From: a virus | Taxonomy: Duplodnaviria > Caudoviricetes | Length of the DNA: 64,000 nucleotides | Virus record (IMG/VR): IMGVR_UViG_3300016478_000063 | Span: 1-64,000 of that record | Reading direction: 5' to 3' (one strand) | Shown: in pieces, positions 45,003 through 50,527 of the stretch | Layout of the letters: every line of letters begins with the position of its first letter | How positions within the stretch are numbered: position 1 is the stretch's first letter | Translations under genes and position numbers: made by a program | The notes under the pieces: model-generated | What the model was told of the DNA's origin: nothing | Databases searched by the model: none | Seen by the model: only the letters and a program-made list of their open reading frames with translations

Positions 45003-45596
45003 ATGATTCGTGGTAAAAAGTTAGTTTATGGGGTTGGGATAAACGATGCGGATTATCCCGTAACCAAGTATAGCTTACATGAAGGAAAGAAAGTACAAAC
45101 ATGGGTGTGTCCATTCTATAAAAAGTGGAGAAGTATGTTACAGCGTTGTTATGACCCAAAGAATATCAACAGGCAGCCAGCGTACATCAGTTGCTTTGTA
45201 TGGGAAGGGTGGCACACTTTCTCTAGCTTCAAATCTTGGATGGAACAGCAGGATTGGGAAGGGAAAGAGCTAGACAAAGATTTGCTAGGAGATGGAAAGC
45301 TATACTCCCCTATCAACTGTTGCTTTCTTTCCCCGGATTTGAACAAGTTCTTATTAGATAGATTCGCTGCTAGAGGAGAATATCCGATAGGCGTTTCGTG
45401 GCATAAAAGGAGAAACAAGTTTCAAGCCAGTTGTAAAAATCCTCTTACAAAGTCTCAAGATTATCTCGGACTGTTTTCTTGCCCTAATGAGGCTCACCTT
45501 GCATGGAAGAAGAGAAAAAGAGAGTTAGCTCTTATACTTGCAGACCAACAAAATGATATTAAAATAGCCAATGCACTCCGCTCTTTATTCCTTTAA
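45003..45596 (+). CDS. Free-standing HNH-type homing endonuclease
   Basis: VYGVGINDADY...WEGKELDKDLL...YSPINCCFLS...YPIGV. Confidence 0.88.
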   Translation: MIRGKKLVYGVGINDADYPVTKYSLHEGKKVQTWVCPFYKKWRSMLQRCYDPKNINRQPAYISCFVWEGWHTFSSFKSWMEQQDWEGKELDKDLLGDGKLYSPINCCFLSPDLNKFLLDRFAARGEYPIGVSWHKRRNKFQASCKNPLTKSQDYLGLFSCPNEAHLAWKKRKRELALILADQQNDIKIANALRSLFL

Positions 45597-45950
45597 TTTA
45601 CTTTCTTGACTACTCCCGTTTACTACAGCAGAATTGTTATTTATAATTCTGCTGTTTTCCCTTTTCCTATTTTCTAGGTTTTGTTGTCTAACTTCTAATA
45701 CTTCAATACGTCTAGTTGTGTTCACTTGGTATGAGTCTTGATTACTGGCTACGCGGTTAATCTTATCTTCCAAGTACATAAAATTTGACTGATTAGCTTT
45801 GTTTACTTCCTGCCTTAAATCTTGCAGAGCTATTTCATAGTTTGAAAAATCTGTTCTATAATTGTCATTCTTCAAAAGAATTGTCATTATAGTGACGGCA
45901 AGGAGAAGGAAGGTGCAGTTTACAACTAGGTTTAATGTCTTCCAAAACAA
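45585..45950 (-). CDS. Membrane-anchored coiled-coil protein (lysis cluster)
   Basis: N-terminal TM helix, then coiled coil. Confidence 0.7.
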   Translation of the reverse strand: MFWKTLNLVVNCTFLLLAVTIMTILLKNDNYRTDFSNYEIALQDLRQEVNKANQSNFMYLEDKINRVASNQDSYQVNTTRRIEVLEVRQQNLENRKRENSRIINNNSAVVNGSSQESKLKE

Positions 45951-45977: not shown

Positions 45978-46292
45978 TTACTTCTTCTCTAGGTAGAATG
46001 TAAGAATCTGTCTAACGTCTGCTCTAACAGCCTCTGTCTGATTTTTTACATCGGCACGGAGGGCTTCATTACCAGCGGTAAGTCTAGTCTCTAGTTCTTT
46101 AAGCTCTTGTTTAGTTACAGAAGTGCGATAAAGCTCTAAAACTTTAGTATTCAGGTCTTTAATTTCTGTTTTATATTCTGCCTTGTCTGCCCAATATTGT
46201 GTTTGGGCAAGAGCCAGCAAGAGCATTAGAAGACCAATAGCAGCCCTCTCAAATAAATTGTTAATGCGGTGATTCGCGTTTTCAATCGCCAT
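45978..46292 (-). CDS. Single-TM protein, possible holin/antiholin
   Basis: TM AAIGLLMLLLALA plus coiled coil; next to spanins. Confidence 0.6.
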   Translation of the reverse strand: MAIENANHRINNLFERAAIGLLMLLLALAQTQYWADKAEYKTEIKDLNTKVLELYRTSVTKQELKELETRLTAGNEALRADVKNQTEAVRADVRQILTFYLEKK

Positions 46293-46395
46293 CTTTAAAC
46301 AGAGCCTCTATCTTTTGGTTATAATCTTTTTGTTTTTCCAATAGAAGCCTATACTCCCCAACACAGGATGTGTTCTTTACATATCCCCGAGCTAA
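46282..46395 (-). pseudogene. Displaced former 3' end of the o-spanin gene
   Basis: LARGYVKNTSCVGEYRLLLEKQKDYNQKIEALFKDGD* is 20/35 identical to the current o-spanin C-terminus; its stop overlaps the next ATG. Confidence 0.85.
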
Positions 46396-46401
46396 CAAGT
46401 C

Positions 46402-46429
46402 TTGACAACCATGTATGTTTTCGAATAAT
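46402..46429 (+). promoter_or_regulatory. sigma70-like promoter for the antisense HNH
   Basis: TTGACA-16-AATAAT, RBS AGAGGA at 46451. Confidence 0.55.
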
Positions 46430-46463
46430 ATAGTTTTTTTTTCATAACACAGAGGATTCCTAA

Positions 46464-47129
46464 ATGAAAATTGTTCAAACTGTCGGCATAAACGATGCTG
46501 ATTACCCAGTAAGCCAATCAGTGAACGGAAAGAGGCAGATTTGCCCATTTTATAAGGTATGGACGGGTATGCTTACTAGGTGCTATAATCTAAAATTTAA
46601 AGAAAGGCGGCCGACCTATAAAGATTGTACCGTGTGTGAGGAGTGGTTGACATTCTCCACATTCCGTTCATGGATGGAGTCTCAGCCTTGGCAAGGTATG
46701 CGACTTGACAAGGATTTGACGTTTATGGGCAACACCCACTACAGTCCACACACCTGTGCATTTATCCCAAACTGCATAAATTGTATTTTGGGAACCTGTA
46801 AAGCATCTCGCGGGGAACACCCTGTGGGTGTTTCTAAGGAAAAAATTGCCAAAGATATGGTGAACTACCTCAAAAATCCTTTCAGAGCGGAAGTACAAAC
46901 CTTGAATGGAAAACGAAAGCACTTGGGTATGTACTCCACAGCAGCAGAGGCACACGCTGCATGGCAAAAGGGAAAAATAGATGTTATCCGAGAGTATATT
47001 TTGTGGTGGGAGTTTGATCCATCTGTTAATCAAACTTTTAATACAACAATCGCTGATAATCTATTAGCTATCGCAGAGAAAATAGAACAAGATTTACGAA
47101 AAGGCGTGGAGACATTATCCTACTTTTGA
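46464..47129 (+). CDS. Free-standing HNH-type homing endonuclease, antisense inside the lysis cluster
   Basis: TVGINDADY...CEEWLTFSTFRSWM...LDKDL...YSPHTCAFIP. Confidence 0.9.
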   Translation: MKIVQTVGINDADYPVSQSVNGKRQICPFYKVWTGMLTRCYNLKFKERRPTYKDCTVCEEWLTFSTFRSWMESQPWQGMRLDKDLTFMGNTHYSPHTCAFIPNCINCILGTCKASRGEHPVGVSKEKIAKDMVNYLKNPFRAEVQTLNGKRKHLGMYSTAAEAHAAWQKGKIDVIREYILWWEFDPSVNQTFNTTIADNLLAIAEKIEQDLRKGVETLSYF

Positions 47130-47392
47130 TACAAGTTTAAAACTTTTTCGTTGTACTGTCTCTGCTTTTCTAACAAAAGCCTATATTGTAATATACAAGA
47201 TGTGTTTATAACATAGGCTTTCGCTAACCTACGCACAGTATCCCCTGCACCTATTGCTTCACAAGGGATAACTAAAAGACTATTAGGGATTTGTACAGGC
47301 ACGTCCTTTTGAATGTAAACAACTTTCGGAGAGCATCCTAACAAGATCATCAGGCAACTTACGATCAAGGATGCTTTGAGAATGCAATTCAT
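47120..47392 (-). CDS. o-spanin (Rz1-like outer-membrane lipoprotein)
   Basis: Lipobox LLGC, Pro-rich segment, overlaps the 3' end of the i-spanin. Confidence 0.85.
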   Translation of the reverse strand: MNCILKASLIVSCLMILLGCSPKVVYIQKDVPVQIPNSLLVIPCEAIGAGDTVRRLAKAYVINTSCILQYRLLLEKQRQYNEKVLNLYQK

Positions 47393-47681
47393 GTTGTTCC
47401 TCTTTATGAGACATTCTGTCCAACTTATCTAAGTAGTCTTGTGTCTTGTCTCTATGCTCTTTTTGTTCTTCTTTGTAATCAGACACTACAGCATCTTGAA
47501 TTTTACAAAGAGATTGTTGTCTTTTCACGCTATTCTCTAAGGTTTTATTCGCTTCTTGACAGAGGGATAAGGATTGCTCTGCCTTAACTTTTTGCCCATA
47601 AAAAGCATAAGAAACATAACCAAATAAGCCATTTAGAGATAGACTGACAATGAGGAATGTAATTAGTGTACGATTAACCAT
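47283..47681 (-). CDS. i-spanin (Rz-like)
   Basis: N-terminal TM, periplasmic coiled coil, LDRKLPDDLVRML, C-terminal Cys. Confidence 0.85.
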   Translation of the reverse strand: MVNRTLITFLIVSLSLNGLFGYVSYAFYGQKVKAEQSLSLCQEANKTLENSVKRQQSLCKIQDAVVSDYKEEQKEHRDKTQDYLDKLDRMSHKEEQHELHSQSILDRKLPDDLVRMLSESCLHSKGRACTNP

Positions 47682-47934
47682 CTTTATGTTCTTCCCTTTT
47701 ACAACTACCTTCTCTTACATCATCTAATCCTTGGTCAATAACCCTCCCGATTAAACCTAATACCCCAAGAGGAATGCCAATAATCAGAATGGTGGTAAGG
47801 GCAAACTCAGAAGTGAGAATGCCCAATACCGATAGACCAGAAATAGAGAGAGCAATGAGAATGTTGGAAAGAATAGAAAGACTTGAATAAGATTTAATTA
47901 AACGAGATTTCCAGTTCTTTGCAAGTCTTTTCAT
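47674..47934 (-). CDS. Holin-like two-TM protein (start moved to MKRLAKNW)
   Basis: ACGGAG RBS; two hydrophobic helices and charged C-terminus; directly upstream of spanins. Confidence 0.7.
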   Translation of the reverse strand: MKRLAKNWKSRLIKSYSSLSILSNILIALSISGLSVLGILTSEFALTTILIIGIPLGVLGLIGRVIDQGLDDVREGSCKREEHKDG

Positions 47935-47937
47935 AGG

Positions 47938-47997
47938 TGCTCCGTTAATTGGTATCTGCGCTGCGTCGCGGCCACCCGCGTTTTGGGAGAGGGTGGC
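47938..47997 (-). repeat. Conserved structured element, copy 1 (3' of tailspike 2)
   Basis: TGCTCCGTTAATTGGT..CTGCGCT.CGTCG.GGCCACCC.CG.TTTGGGAG, shared with 52289-52343. Confidence 0.85.
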
Positions 47998-48013
47998 GTC
48001 AGGACGCATGCCT

Positions 48014-50527
48014 CTAGTATGACACGTTGTTTGCAACAACTTTATTTGCACTTGGCGTAGGGTAGGTAGCAGTACCATCAATCACATTCCCTGTAACAGT
48101 AGCGTTTGTGATTTCGGCGTCAGTAAGGGTTACTACGCCCTTGATAAAATTATTTGCAAATACGCACGCTTTGATCAGATTGCTCGATGCAATTACGAAG
48201 CTACTTGTGGCGTCGGTTGCTTGCTGGATCAAATTTCCGACCGCAACCAACGTGCCGGTAAAACCGACTGCATTAAATACCCTAACAGCACCCCCTGTAA
48301 CACCAGCCAGATTATTCCAACTGAATTGGCAGTCATTCACTGTCGATAAAAGCTGGAAGCGCACCTCTCCTGTGTTCCCGTTAAAAACAACTTTTGCAGC
48401 CTGTGGGCGGAATAATTGATTATTTGGGTCAACTCTGAAGTTGCATCCAACAAAGCTGTTTACTGCGCCGTAAAAATCACGTGTCCCGGATGCAGCCGCG
48501 CCCGGATCAAAACTACAGTCGTTGAAGTAGAACGATCCGGTATTTGATGTCGTTCCCGTAAAAGCGAAATACTGCGTATTCCCTGGCTTAATCACAAAAC
48601 GAGAACCGACAGCGTACAGCGAGCCGTTTGCGAATTGCGCTAACCCGACAACTGTGCAGTTGTGCAGATGCACACGGTAGCCGTCCAAAATGTTTAATGA
48701 GCGCTGACTGTCCTGAGCAACAAGAATACAGTTGCTAACACGAATATCACCAGAGTCAAAAGCACCGTTTGTAACGTCAGATTCTGTCAGGATACCGCCG
48801 AACAACTGGCAGTTTTCAACCAGCACGTCTGCGTTGCCGACCGCTATTGCATATGCGACAACCGATGGCCGCATCTGGACAAGCGTGTTGCTGACGCGCA
48901 GCCCGCTCCCCTTGTTTCTAAAGGCGATCCCCCGGGGTGCAGCGCAATCGACCACAGAGCAGTTGGAGATTGTGATCTGGTCGGTGGTATCACCAAAACC
49001 TGTATTAACCCGACCTAGCACAAACGCGCCGTCAAAGGCCGCACTTTGCGATACGCATCGGTCATAAACAATGTCGTATTCAAAGGCGGTGTGTAGTGTG
49101 TAAGACGCGCTCAACGTATTGCTATCGACGCAATCCGAGGCCGTGATATGCCATGCGACAGTGAAGTCCAAAGTGTGTCGGCATCGCGCACCAATGACAC
49201 GCTTTGCAGTCGAGTTGTAAACGTACTCAAACTGTAAAGCATATCCTTCACCACCGCCTGTTGCAGCAGGGTTTCTGCAATAAATGTCAGATACATGTGC
49301 GTTAAGAGCAAATTGAAATTTCACACCCTTAAACCAAAACCCGACAAAGGTGCAGTTTCTGGCGAAGCAGTTTGCTGTGTATTGGAAAAACACACCACCC
49401 ATGCCGTTTGCGCGTGAAGTCTGCCCCGTAGCTACAAACTTGCAGTTTTCAATGCCCGACCCTTCAACTGCGTTGAGTTTAGTAACACTGACCGTTTCAG
49501 AGGCCGTAAGCGCCAAGCGGCGCGTCACATCAGTGGTAATCGTTGCGCCAGAGATCGCAGTAATACGTGCAGTGACGTTTACATAGAGTCCGGGCAGCGC
49601 GGCAGAAGCCGAATCAATCTGCACCACGTCACCAACAGCAAAACCGGCTGCGCTGGCAACAACCATGGCACTTGTGTACTCGGCAGCGTCGGCAGCAACT
49701 GTCGTAGCGGTCGCTGACAAAGTACCCTTGAACTCAAAAACTCCAGTGTTCAGGCTGTCAAGCCCCGCCCCAGCCCAAATAATCGTGGCACCCTCGCCGT
49801 CGATTGTGAATCCTGAAATGTCTACATTGACCCGAGAAGTTAGCTTATAGGTTCGCCCAGCAAGTTTCAGGCCACGTTTACCACTCGCCTTGCAGTCGGC
49901 AATGGCAGCCACAAATTCCGCTGTGTCATCAGCAACGCCGTCACCAACGGCACCGTAATCCATAACGGAGGCCCAATCGTCGAGTTTTTCCGCGACAGTG
50001 CGCCCCATGTACCCCACCAACCCAGCCCCCTTCGATGGGTCGGTGGCGTTGGCAAGGTCATTCCTTAAAACATCTGTATAACCTTGAGCTTGACCTTCTA
50101 CAATGTCCAACTCCGCTTGTGTAGCAAAATCTTCTACATTCTGGAAGGCAGCAGTACCAAGAGAGGATAGAGTAAGTTCTACGGCATCTAAGCGAGAATC
50201 AATCTCTGATGGGTTGTCAATTTTTACGGCAGATACGCCATTAAACTGATAGAAATCCCCGTTGCTTTTAATCTTAAAGATAAAAGACTTAGGACAAGGA
50301 GAGCTATACCAAACACTGTCAACACCGAAATAAAATCTATTATCTGCACTATTGAAGTGGGCAGCACCGTTAGACACTGGGGGTAAAGAAGCTACAATGC
50401 TGTCTACATTACCATCAAACATGAAAGAGAACTTTAGTAAGTTCTCATCCATGCCGGTATTCCAATTGTTCTCTCCGTAATTCCACCCGTATTTCCCTTC
50501 AAGAAAAGGGCTTTGTTGTTGAGGCAT
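48014..50527 (-). CDS. Tailspike/depolymerase with right-handed beta-helix
   Basis: Phage N-terminal anchor, DLANATDPSKGA linker, SVMDYGAVGDGVADDT pectate-lyase-3-like start, beta-helix repeats. Confidence 0.88.
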   Translation of the reverse strand: MPQQQSPFLEGKYGWNYGENNWNTGMDENLLKFSFMFDGNVDSIVASLPPVSNGAAHFNSADNRFYFGVDSVWYSSPCPKSFIFKIKSNGDFYQFNGVSAVKIDNPSEIDSRLDAVELTLSSLGTAAFQNVEDFATQAELDIVEGQAQGYTDVLRNDLANATDPSKGAGLVGYMGRTVAEKLDDWASVMDYGAVGDGVADDTAEFVAAIADCKASGKRGLKLAGRTYKLTSRVNVDISGFTIDGEGATIIWAGAGLDSLNTGVFEFKGTLSATATTVAADAAEYTSAMVVASAAGFAVGDVVQIDSASAALPGLYVNVTARITAISGATITTDVTRRLALTASETVSVTKLNAVEGSGIENCKFVATGQTSRANGMGGVFFQYTANCFARNCTFVGFWFKGVKFQFALNAHVSDIYCRNPAATGGGEGYALQFEYVYNSTAKRVIGARCRHTLDFTVAWHITASDCVDSNTLSASYTLHTAFEYDIVYDRCVSQSAAFDGAFVLGRVNTGFGDTTDQITISNCSVVDCAAPRGIAFRNKGSGLRVSNTLVQMRPSVVAYAIAVGNADVLVENCQLFGGILTESDVTNGAFDSGDIRVSNCILVAQDSQRSLNILDGYRVHLHNCTVVGLAQFANGSLYAVGSRFVIKPGNTQYFAFTGTTSNTGSFYFNDCSFDPGAAASGTRDFYGAVNSFVGCNFRVDPNNQLFRPQAAKVVFNGNTGEVRFQLLSTVNDCQFSWNNLAGVTGGAVRVFNAVGFTGTLVAVGNLIQQATDATSSFVIASSNLIKACVFANNFIKGVVTLTDAEITNATVTGNVIDGTATYPTPSANKVVANNVSY

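Follow-up and report, generated by a model that had tools for sequence, protein, structure and literature searches.

A putative homing endonuclease cassette that supplies a replacement end to a phage o-spanin gene

Organization of the locus

In the tailed phage (Caudoviricetes) of IMG/VR record IMGVR_UViG_3300016478_000063, the o-spanin gene of the lysis cluster is interrupted by an antisense gene for an HNH-type endonuclease, on either side of which lies a version of the o-spanin 3′ end. All coordinates given here are positions in the window, the 64,000-nucleotide (nt) stretch at positions 1 to 64,000 of this record; the parent virus genome, G000, has 88,799 bp. The interval 46396..47227, here called the cassette, is very probably a mobile homing-endonuclease element residing in the o-spanin gene, and carries a replacement gene end, an antisense HNH-AP2 gene and a promoter (Table 1). 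From the comparisons described below we infer that it cleaves and homes.

The lysis cluster is encoded on the minus strand of the window. The o-spanin is a hybrid, made up of a native 5′ part (47228..47392) and the replacement 3′ end (47120..47227). Its start at 47392 lies inside the i-spanin gene in a different frame, and its lipobox (LLGC or LSGC) contains a cysteine that is invariant across seven aligned homologs, as in the lipoprotein of a two-component spanin. The position of the gene, overlapping that of the i-spanin within the lysis cluster, is also that of an o-spanin, and a lysozyme gene is found upstream in relatives; the match to Pfam LysC (E 0.0048) is under the model's cut-off. 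The i-spanin gene is unaffected by the insertion and has 97% nt identity with that of L012, a relative that lacks the endonuclease gene.

The insertion falls between codons 55 and 56 of the o-spanin gene, within its best-conserved motif (GDTVR-S/LA, where the stroke marks the junction). The stop codons of the endonuclease and o-spanin genes overlap tail-to-tail by 10 nt. Beyond the endonuclease gene, the stop of the second, stranded copy of the end (46282-46284) overlaps the ATG region of the next gene (46290-46292). In endonuclease-free relatives it is the o-spanin stop that overlaps the start of the next gene, and this overlap is 8 nt in the distant endonuclease-free Pseudomonas phages M1, SYP and phiPMW. 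An earlier note, made from the sequence of the window alone, had reported the overlap of the second copy with the next ATG, which is indeed present at 46282-46292, and had placed the i- and o-spanin genes, the HNH gene, the second copy and the next gene at coordinates that all hold.

Table 1. Features of the o-spanin locus, in window coordinates
Feature	Position	Strand	Basis or remark
Small membrane protein	47674..48081	-	Lysis cluster member
i-Spanin, 132 amino acids (aa)	47283..47681	-	Open reading frame (ORF); PHROG Rz-like spanin families, best E 1.3e-5
Hybrid o-spanin, 90 aa	47120..47392	-	phrog_456, E 6.8e-5; lipobox LLGC
Putative mobile cassette, 832 bp	46396..47227	.	Replacement end, antisense endonuclease gene and promoter/leader
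Replacement o-spanin end, 35 codons and stop	47120..47227	-	Always terminates LNLYQK-stop
Hairpin of replacement end	47170..47227	-	Folding of cassette copies compared with native ends
HNH-AP2 (IPA-HNH-type) putative homing endonuclease gene, 221 aa	46464..47129	+	phrog_953 'HNH endonuclease', E 2.6e-81
Predicted sigma-70-like promoter of endonuclease gene	46402..46431	+	Motif scan
Ribosome-binding site (RBS) GAGGA of endonuclease gene	46452-46456	+	Precedes ATG
Stranded native o-spanin end, 37 codons and stop, frame intact	46282..46395	-	97% nt identity to functional end of L012/L026
Next gene, membrane protein, 104 aa	45978..46292	-	ORF; phrog_5345, E 2.6e-6

The two o-spanin ends

The working and stranded ends are identical at 20 of 35 residues (57%) and at 64 of 105 nt (61%), and a tblastx comparison of one flank of the HNH gene with the other gives E = 7e-12. 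No duplicated flank was found beside the other seven HNH paralogs of the 88.8-kb genome. Together these results indicate that the second copy of the o-spanin end, which the earlier note had recognized from the same 20 residues, is real and specific to this gene. The new end had also been described as recoded. It is certainly divergent, as the 57% aa identity attests, and recoding does not describe it: 10 of the 20 shared residues keep the identical codon. Deliberate synonymous recoding is thus not supported. Very high Nei-Gojobori pS values (proportion of synonymous differences) denote saturation.

The new end retains the invariant N-T-x-C and the hydrophobic pattern of the o-spanin family. 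The N-terminal part of the hybrid protein is 92% identical in aa to that of L012; the C-terminal part is 86% identical to that of L013, a carrier of the cassette from another lineage, and just 60% to that of L012. The new end looks like a natural o-spanin end from another lineage that was transported with the endonuclease gene. It is most likely a diverged homologous allele, the flank of an earlier carrier.

Relatives without the endonuclease gene

A megablast search of GenBank phages with the locus gave no match, nor did tblastn with the next gene or a single-protein scan of viral contigs with the i-spanin. A protein search with the o-spanin led to one relative, the 826-nt contig L012, in which the genes for i-spanin and o-spanin are contiguous and the endonuclease gene is absent. 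Over the nucleotides that correspond to 46291..46395, the o-spanin end of L012 is 97% identical (102/105 nt) to the stranded copy, compared with about 63-66% to the working end. L026, an independent contig of 4.4 kb, has a single uninterrupted o-spanin gene with an end 97% identical to the stranded copy over the same positions, and contains neither an endonuclease gene nor a second copy of the end in the 1.6 kb downstream. The upstream sequence of both contigs is about 95% identical to that of the window.

Scans of viral and metagenome contigs extended the endonuclease-free set to 25 loci, some of them redundant. All 25 have a single native-type o-spanin end (L-A/S-x-G-Y...), and in none was the window's working-end type (...K-A-Y...LNLYQK-stop) or a second copy found. 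The earlier note had proposed that the o-spanin C-terminus of HNH-free relatives should match the downstream copy, and so it does; the two outcomes that it had named as contrary, HNH-free relatives with both copies or with a match to the upstream copy, were seen in 0 of the 25.

Carriers and non-carriers could be paired in three cases. Between the window and its sisters L012 and L026 upstream identity is 95%, that of the stranded to the native end 97%, and that of the new to the native end 66%. The corresponding values are 90, 78 and 62% for the carrier L015 and its sister L041; for L037 and its sisters L049 and L050 they are 95 and 90% upstream, 81 and 86% for the stranded end, and 55 and 57% for the new end. 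As with homing genes, the element is thus present or absent at one site among phages that are 90-95% identical upstream, and in each paired carrier the stranded end resembles the native end of its own cassette-free sister. Identity matrices show that the N-terminal parts and the stranded ends share one set of relationships, and that the new ends follow those of the HNH gene.

Most of the differences between the window's stranded end and that of L015 are at synonymous positions (pN, the proportion of nonsynonymous differences, 0.23; pS 0.84). The two ends would therefore have diverged while functional and been stranded separately, which implies that the cassette entered this codon on at least three separate occasions, or that recombination with cassette-free phages has brought continual renewal. 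A single old accident as the source of the stranded ends was considered and is disfavoured by the same synonymous divergence.

Several further features of these contigs were seen. A second mosaic breakpoint lies at the start of the next gene, at about 46288/46289 in the window, 646 in L012 and 1872 in L026. The similarity of L012 and L026 to the window ends there; their next gene is of the L013 type and that of the window of the L015 type (80% nt). L012 is flanked at both ends by GTTTCCCAGTCACGATC, and L027, a truncated relative of the window, terminates in Illumina adapter sequence. The terminal bases of both contigs are therefore artefacts, among them an apparent stop in the L027 o-spanin gene. 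The carrier L037 and the cassette-free L048 both come from metagenome Ga0209300, so that mixed infection is at least ecologically possible. Their upstream sequences are only about 79% identical, as judged via L047, which has the same end type as L048. L051 (Ga0307413_10004313) represents the only cassette-free lineage with a native end that starts L-A-K-A-Y like the replacement ends; its tail differs from theirs and it has no hairpin (z -0.2). L051 could be related to the lineage from which the replacement end came, or could represent an allele with natural resistance.

The cassette in other phage backgrounds

Four lineages have an ortholog of the endonuclease at the equivalent site. One comprises the window, L017 (97% aa) and the truncated L027; the others are L013 with L014 (86%), L015 with L016 and L023 (69%), and L037 (67%). 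In all four the o-spanin ends in LNLYQK and its stop is interlocked with that of the endonuclease. The replacement end was seen only beside the HNH gene (four lineages with a complete end).

The cassette is more alike between lineages than its flanks, as is usual for homing genes. The HNH gene and new end of the window and L013 are 87% identical in nt, compared with 56% for the i-spanin gene and 50% for the next gene, and in a sliding comparison of the two, identity reaches 0.8-0.9 only between about 47250 and 46430. The cassettes of L015 and L037, 832 and 831 nt when counted from the new end's Leu codon to that of the stranded end, are 93% identical. Outside them identity falls to 64% over the 600 nt upstream, 60% in the stranded ends and 58% downstream. 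The right edge is sharp: identity between L015 and L037 is perfect through the last base of the cassette and is lost at the first stranded (Leu) codon. At the left edge, native-type gives way to cassette-type bases at 47233-47237, as seen at sites where L012 and L013 differ; in L017 the switch comes three bases further on than in the window. Transposon-like ends were looked for, and no terminal inverted repeats were found in the cassette. Taken as sequence, 46396..47227 is a discrete unit, evidently mobile, present at the same codon in at least three phage backgrounds.

These comparisons bear on the alternative that the cassette and the duplicated end are ancestral and that the endonuclease-free relatives arose by repeated precise deletion. 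Deletion between two homologous ends is mechanically possible, and L013, described below, shows that a stranded end can disappear. Repeat-mediated deletion would however be expected to leave new-type or chimeric ends, and those of the cassette-free loci are purely native-type in 25 of 25. Cassettes that are 87-93% alike amid backgrounds of 50-64% cannot be accounted for by vertical descent, and the stranded ends diverged under purifying selection. An ancestral duplication is accordingly very improbable.

The working end and the absence of splicing

Among cassette copies the new end has a ratio of nonsynonymous to synonymous substitution (dN/dS) of 0.09-0.21, indicating purifying selection. The most telling carrier is L013 (Logan ERR1301225_766), which has the cassette and the new end and only about 10 nt of the native end before the ATG of the next gene (TTGTATAAAG before the ATG, compared with TTGTTTAAAG in L012). 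With the native end gone and the o-spanin gene intact, the replacement end must suffice, which excludes splicing. In L013 the frame antisense to the 5′ end of the endonuclease gene continues in frame into the next gene.

A self-splicing intron of 832 bp, with the stranded end as its true second exon and the in-frame new end as an incidental read-through, is then scarcely credible. In its favour, excision of exactly 46396..47227 would rejoin the o-spanin gene in frame, and a strong hairpin stands at the left edge. On the other side, no group I or group II intron model of Rfam matches the locus at E <= 1, the endonuclease gene is antisense and has its own promoter, and the supposed read-through is a homologous o-spanin end under the selection just described. 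The terminal base of the cassette is G in the window and T in L015 and L037, so there is no conserved intron terminal G. L013 lacks any second exon. The view of the earlier note, that the element settled in the o-spanin gene without splicing by bringing a replacement end, is supported by L013, by the Rfam result and by the native ends of all 25 cassette-free loci.

The stranded end is also part of an 88-codon ORF (46282-46548, minus strand) that begins antisense within the endonuclease gene, crosses the spacer and finishes with the stranded end. If translated, it would re-establish the coupling of stop and ATG to the next gene; it may be due to chance. Comparable open frames are present in L015 and L016.

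The endonuclease and its leader

The endonuclease gene is full length in five loci, with dN/dS of 0.09-0.19. Residues 27-111 of the protein match phrog_2081, another PHROG family with an HNH label (E 2.4e-24). The C-terminal domain is an AP2 domain: Foldseek aligned it with the GCC-box domain of AtERF1 (1gcc) with a probability of 0.99 and a TM score of 0.67 on the target, hhalign gave 91% to the AP2 part of L015:209-718, and homologs carry PF00847, as is characteristic of HNH-AP2 proteins. With a canonical HNH_3-AP2 protein the hhalign alignment covers the AP2 part only. Invariant residues of the endonuclease are D82-K83-D84, N106 and the two cysteines C27 and C98. A search of PDB sequences returned only spurious antibody matches. 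A VIA-align search with the whole protein was dominated by the C-terminal helices and was set aside as uninformative for the nuclease domain.

According to Barth et al., the IPA-HNH homing endonucleases have diverged too far to be recognized by the Pfam model and occur together with AP2 (PMC10448857). This class is located at recombination boundaries, its named clades are the Flaumdraviruses, the Barbaviruses and ICP1, and many of its members are found in KIL-type phages of Pseudomonas and in Rheinheimera and Vibrio phages (PMC10448857). In tblastn searches the endonuclease was 46% identical (E 2e-47) to proteins of Pseudomonas KIL1-3, and 115 Rheinheimera and 814 Vibrio phage records were matched; it is thus homologous to proteins of the phage clades that define the IPA-HNH/HNH-AP2 class. 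By sequence profile and AP2 fold, the 221-aa protein is here filed among the putative IPA-HNH/HNH-AP2 homing endonucleases.

In G000 there are eight paralogs of the HNH-AP2 endonuclease; their identity to the protein under study is 30-52%, and six lie within the window. One of these (45003-45596, plus strand, 49% identical) has a 12-nt tail-to-tail overlap with the 3′ end of the minus-strand gene 45585-45950, in the arrangement also seen at the o-spanin gene; no duplicated flank was found there. A paralog lies 0.8-1.5 kb downstream of the o-spanin gene in L024, L032, L042 and L045, and L013 and L015 appear to be without one.

A 68-nt leader (46396..46463) between the stranded end and the endonuclease gene holds the predicted promoter and RBS. 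The promoter scan found TTGACA at 46402-46407, with a spacing of 16 nt to AATAAT or of 18 nt to TAATAT. Conservation across the window, L017, L013, L015 and L037 extends to the -35 hexamer and to a -10 hexamer of sequence TAATAT or TAGTAT, and the cassettes of four lineages share the leader as a whole. Comparison of the leader with native o-spanin sequence gave no significant similarity (shuffle p 0.2-1.0). The leader, conserved among cassettes and unlike o-spanin, is therefore cassette DNA. The motifs reported earlier, TTGACA-16-AATAAT and an RBS, are present; the claim that they arose in a decayed part of the fossil end is not borne out, and the same shuffle test gave no support to a spacer formed as a decayed extension of the stranded end. 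The last bases of the cassette (ACTGTCAAG-like) briefly resemble native T-V-K/R codons, a likeness indistinguishable from chance.

The hairpin of the replacement end

The hairpin is specific to the new end, has the core AAAGCCTAT ... ATAGGCTTT and begins at the first base of the cassette, its left edge. The surrounding 91-nt stretch has a minimum free energy of -28.7 kcal/mol (z -4.8). In 78-nt stretches, all five cassette copies (window, L013, L015, L017 and L037) gave z between -3.7 and -8.9, compared with -2.5 to +1.1 for a set of 22 ends that were native or stranded. The consensus structure comprises 23 pairs, of which one is compensatory. Reverse-complemented, the K-A-Y codons give the Y-R-L codons found some 30 nt further downstream. 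Candidate roles of the hairpin are protection from self-cleavage, or ending or processing of the convergent endonuclease transcript.

Proposed mechanism and alternatives

The first 108 nt of the cassette are a complete substitute for the remainder of the o-spanin gene, and for this reason no splicing is needed. The hybrid o-spanin terminates within the cassette, and the native end would stay untranslated downstream. On co-infection with a cassette-free relative, the endonuclease would cut the uninterrupted o-spanin site, and the break would be repaired from the carrier genome, with left homology provided by the 5′ part of the o-spanin gene and right homology by the stranded end. The recipient's own o-spanin end would then become the new stranded copy. 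Carriers would be immune to the endonuclease because the insertion, to judge from its position, splits the recognition site. The new end may originally have been the native o-spanin end of the first lineage settled by the endonuclease gene, carried along since as a co-converted flank. The best-conserved motif of the o-spanin gene, where the insertion lies, is a typical homing target.

Some points weigh against this proposal. All of the relatives are metagenomic contigs, and cleavage, homing and the transcript are things that we infer only. Pfam and NCBIfam gave no match to the N-terminal nuclease domain, which has no obvious His-Asn-His triad. The top structural neighbour of its predicted model (pLDDT 88) is the HNH restriction enzyme PacI with two aligners, a weak likeness (Z 4.6; Foldseek E 3.5). 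Between lineages the homology on the right-hand side can be as low as 60%, at which homology-directed repair would be inefficient unless donors and recipients are closer than the sampled pairs. Finally, in each of the three lineages with a stranded end that end is intact, which fits recent invasion and could also reflect selection.

The catalytic residues of the HNH-AP2 protein are putative only, and the genomes are mosaic in this region, with another breakpoint at the next gene's ATG. The block might have been moved by recombination of an ordinary mosaic or an illegitimate kind, with the HNH-AP2 gene as an inactive or domesticated passenger that has no part in site-specific cleavage. That is quite unlikely in view of the identical codon, the 831-832-bp length and the sharp right edge in three backgrounds, the insertion in the most conserved motif, the purifying selection on the endonuclease protein and the description of its family as a homing-endonuclease class at recombination boundaries (PMC10448857).

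Selection on the stranded end, for example for the translation-initiation context of the next gene or for an 88-codon ORF (46282..46548) that restores coupling, is compatible with a homing cassette, and is itself unlikely. The intact frame in all three lineages, the retained overlap of stop and ATG, the frame open across the spacer and the retention in L013 of just the last ~10 nt before the ATG would all fit. Set against these, L013 manages without a stranded end, the stranded copy has neither a signal sequence nor a lipobox of its own, and recent, repeated invasion accounts equally well for intactness. The copy in the window is only 3% diverged from a functional allele, and therefore offers no power to detect decay.

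Within the homing-cassette interpretation, a more specific reading is put forward tentatively, as one that we consider possible and rather doubtful. The cassette and the stranded end together may form a splicing-free, intron-like homing unit of a distinct class, in which the stranded end is the right homology arm, renewed from the recipient at every invasion and for that reason always fresh in appearance. The hairpin would be a working part of such a unit: it could block self-cleavage, or it could stop or process the convergent endonuclease transcript before antisense transcription enters the lysis genes.

Relation to known systems

Replacement of a gene end by an invader is already known from fungal mitochondria, where mobile endonuclease ORFs (mORFs) make 'gene hybrids', as in atp6 of Allomyces macrogynus (Paquin et al. 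1994, as summarised in PMC3630166). In Glomus atp6, atp9, cox2 and nad3, a C-terminus of foreign origin comes with the endonuclease ORF, and the native one remains downstream of it (PMC3630166). As in these hybrids, the endonuclease ORF described here has inserted in a coding gene and supplies a foreign C-terminal part in frame with the native part downstream, and the native copy groups with close relatives, the inserted one elsewhere (PMC3630166). The features of an mORF-type gene hybrid, an in-frame functional inserted end, a native end downstream and differing relationships of the two, are all found at the o-spanin locus. Even the divergence of the copies is alike, 63.5% nt identity in Glomus atp6 (PMC3630166) and 61% here. 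The cassette differs in its tailed-phage host, its lysis-gene target and its HNH-AP2 endonuclease in place of LAGLIDADG or GIY-YIG. Its ORF is antisense and has its own promoter, whereas mORFs are in phase and co-oriented with the host gene, and one cassette is found here in several backgrounds with exact boundaries.

Among phages, the free-standing T4 genes SegF, SegG and MobE, which spread by 'intronless homing', share with the cassette the lack of an intron or intein, presence or absence among relatives, co-transfer of donor flanks and a place adjoining important genes (PMC2790892, PMC2988022). Such genes classically lie between genes, and flanking markers are replaced by co-conversion (PMC2790892, PMC2988022). 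The cassette, in contrast, lies within a reading frame, where the flank from the donor is retained next to the recipient's own gene end as a second end that works.

The IPA-HNH proteins, AP2-associated HNH proteins of ICP1-like phages, resemble the cassette protein in an N-terminal domain too divergent for Pfam HNH_3 and a C-terminal AP2 domain (PMC10448857); the HNH-AP2 family goes back to Magnani et al. 2004, as cited there. This likeness is drawn from the matches to phage clades and the AP2 fold. The configurations of IPA-HNH genes given in PMC10448857 are intron, intein, split-gene and free-standing; a replacement end with a stranded original is not among them.

An invaded spanin locus has been described in the T5-like phages Shivani and phiR201, in which a GIY-YIG homing endonuclease gene is inserted between genes that overlap in relatives and that have different ends around the insertion (PMC6139136). 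There the endonuclease gene separates the i-spanin gene from that of the o-spanin, with no report of a leftover duplicate (PMC6139136), whereas here the insertion is within the o-spanin gene and the displaced end is present. Full-text literature searches found no phage description of a replacement-end cassette.

Significance

Homing endonuclease genes are usually said to gain a place in coding DNA only through an intron, an intein, gene splitting or an intergenic site (PMC10448857). The o-spanin locus points to a fourth route in phage, with population-level evidence, in which the invader supplies a spare gene end. With an exactly defined insertion point and a set of occupied and empty alleles, the locus provides a ready system for measuring target recognition by the little-studied IPA-HNH/AP2 endonucleases. 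Annotation pipelines will overlook or miscall stranded ends of this kind.

Such cassettes make hybrid proteins: an o-spanin with a foreign C-terminal region must still function with the resident i-spanin. In this way selfish elements can drive modular exchange inside lysis genes. If the intron-like unit suggested above is real, gene-end replacement cassettes would constitute a distinct class of phage mobile elements, swapping protein C-termini between phage lineages as they spread.

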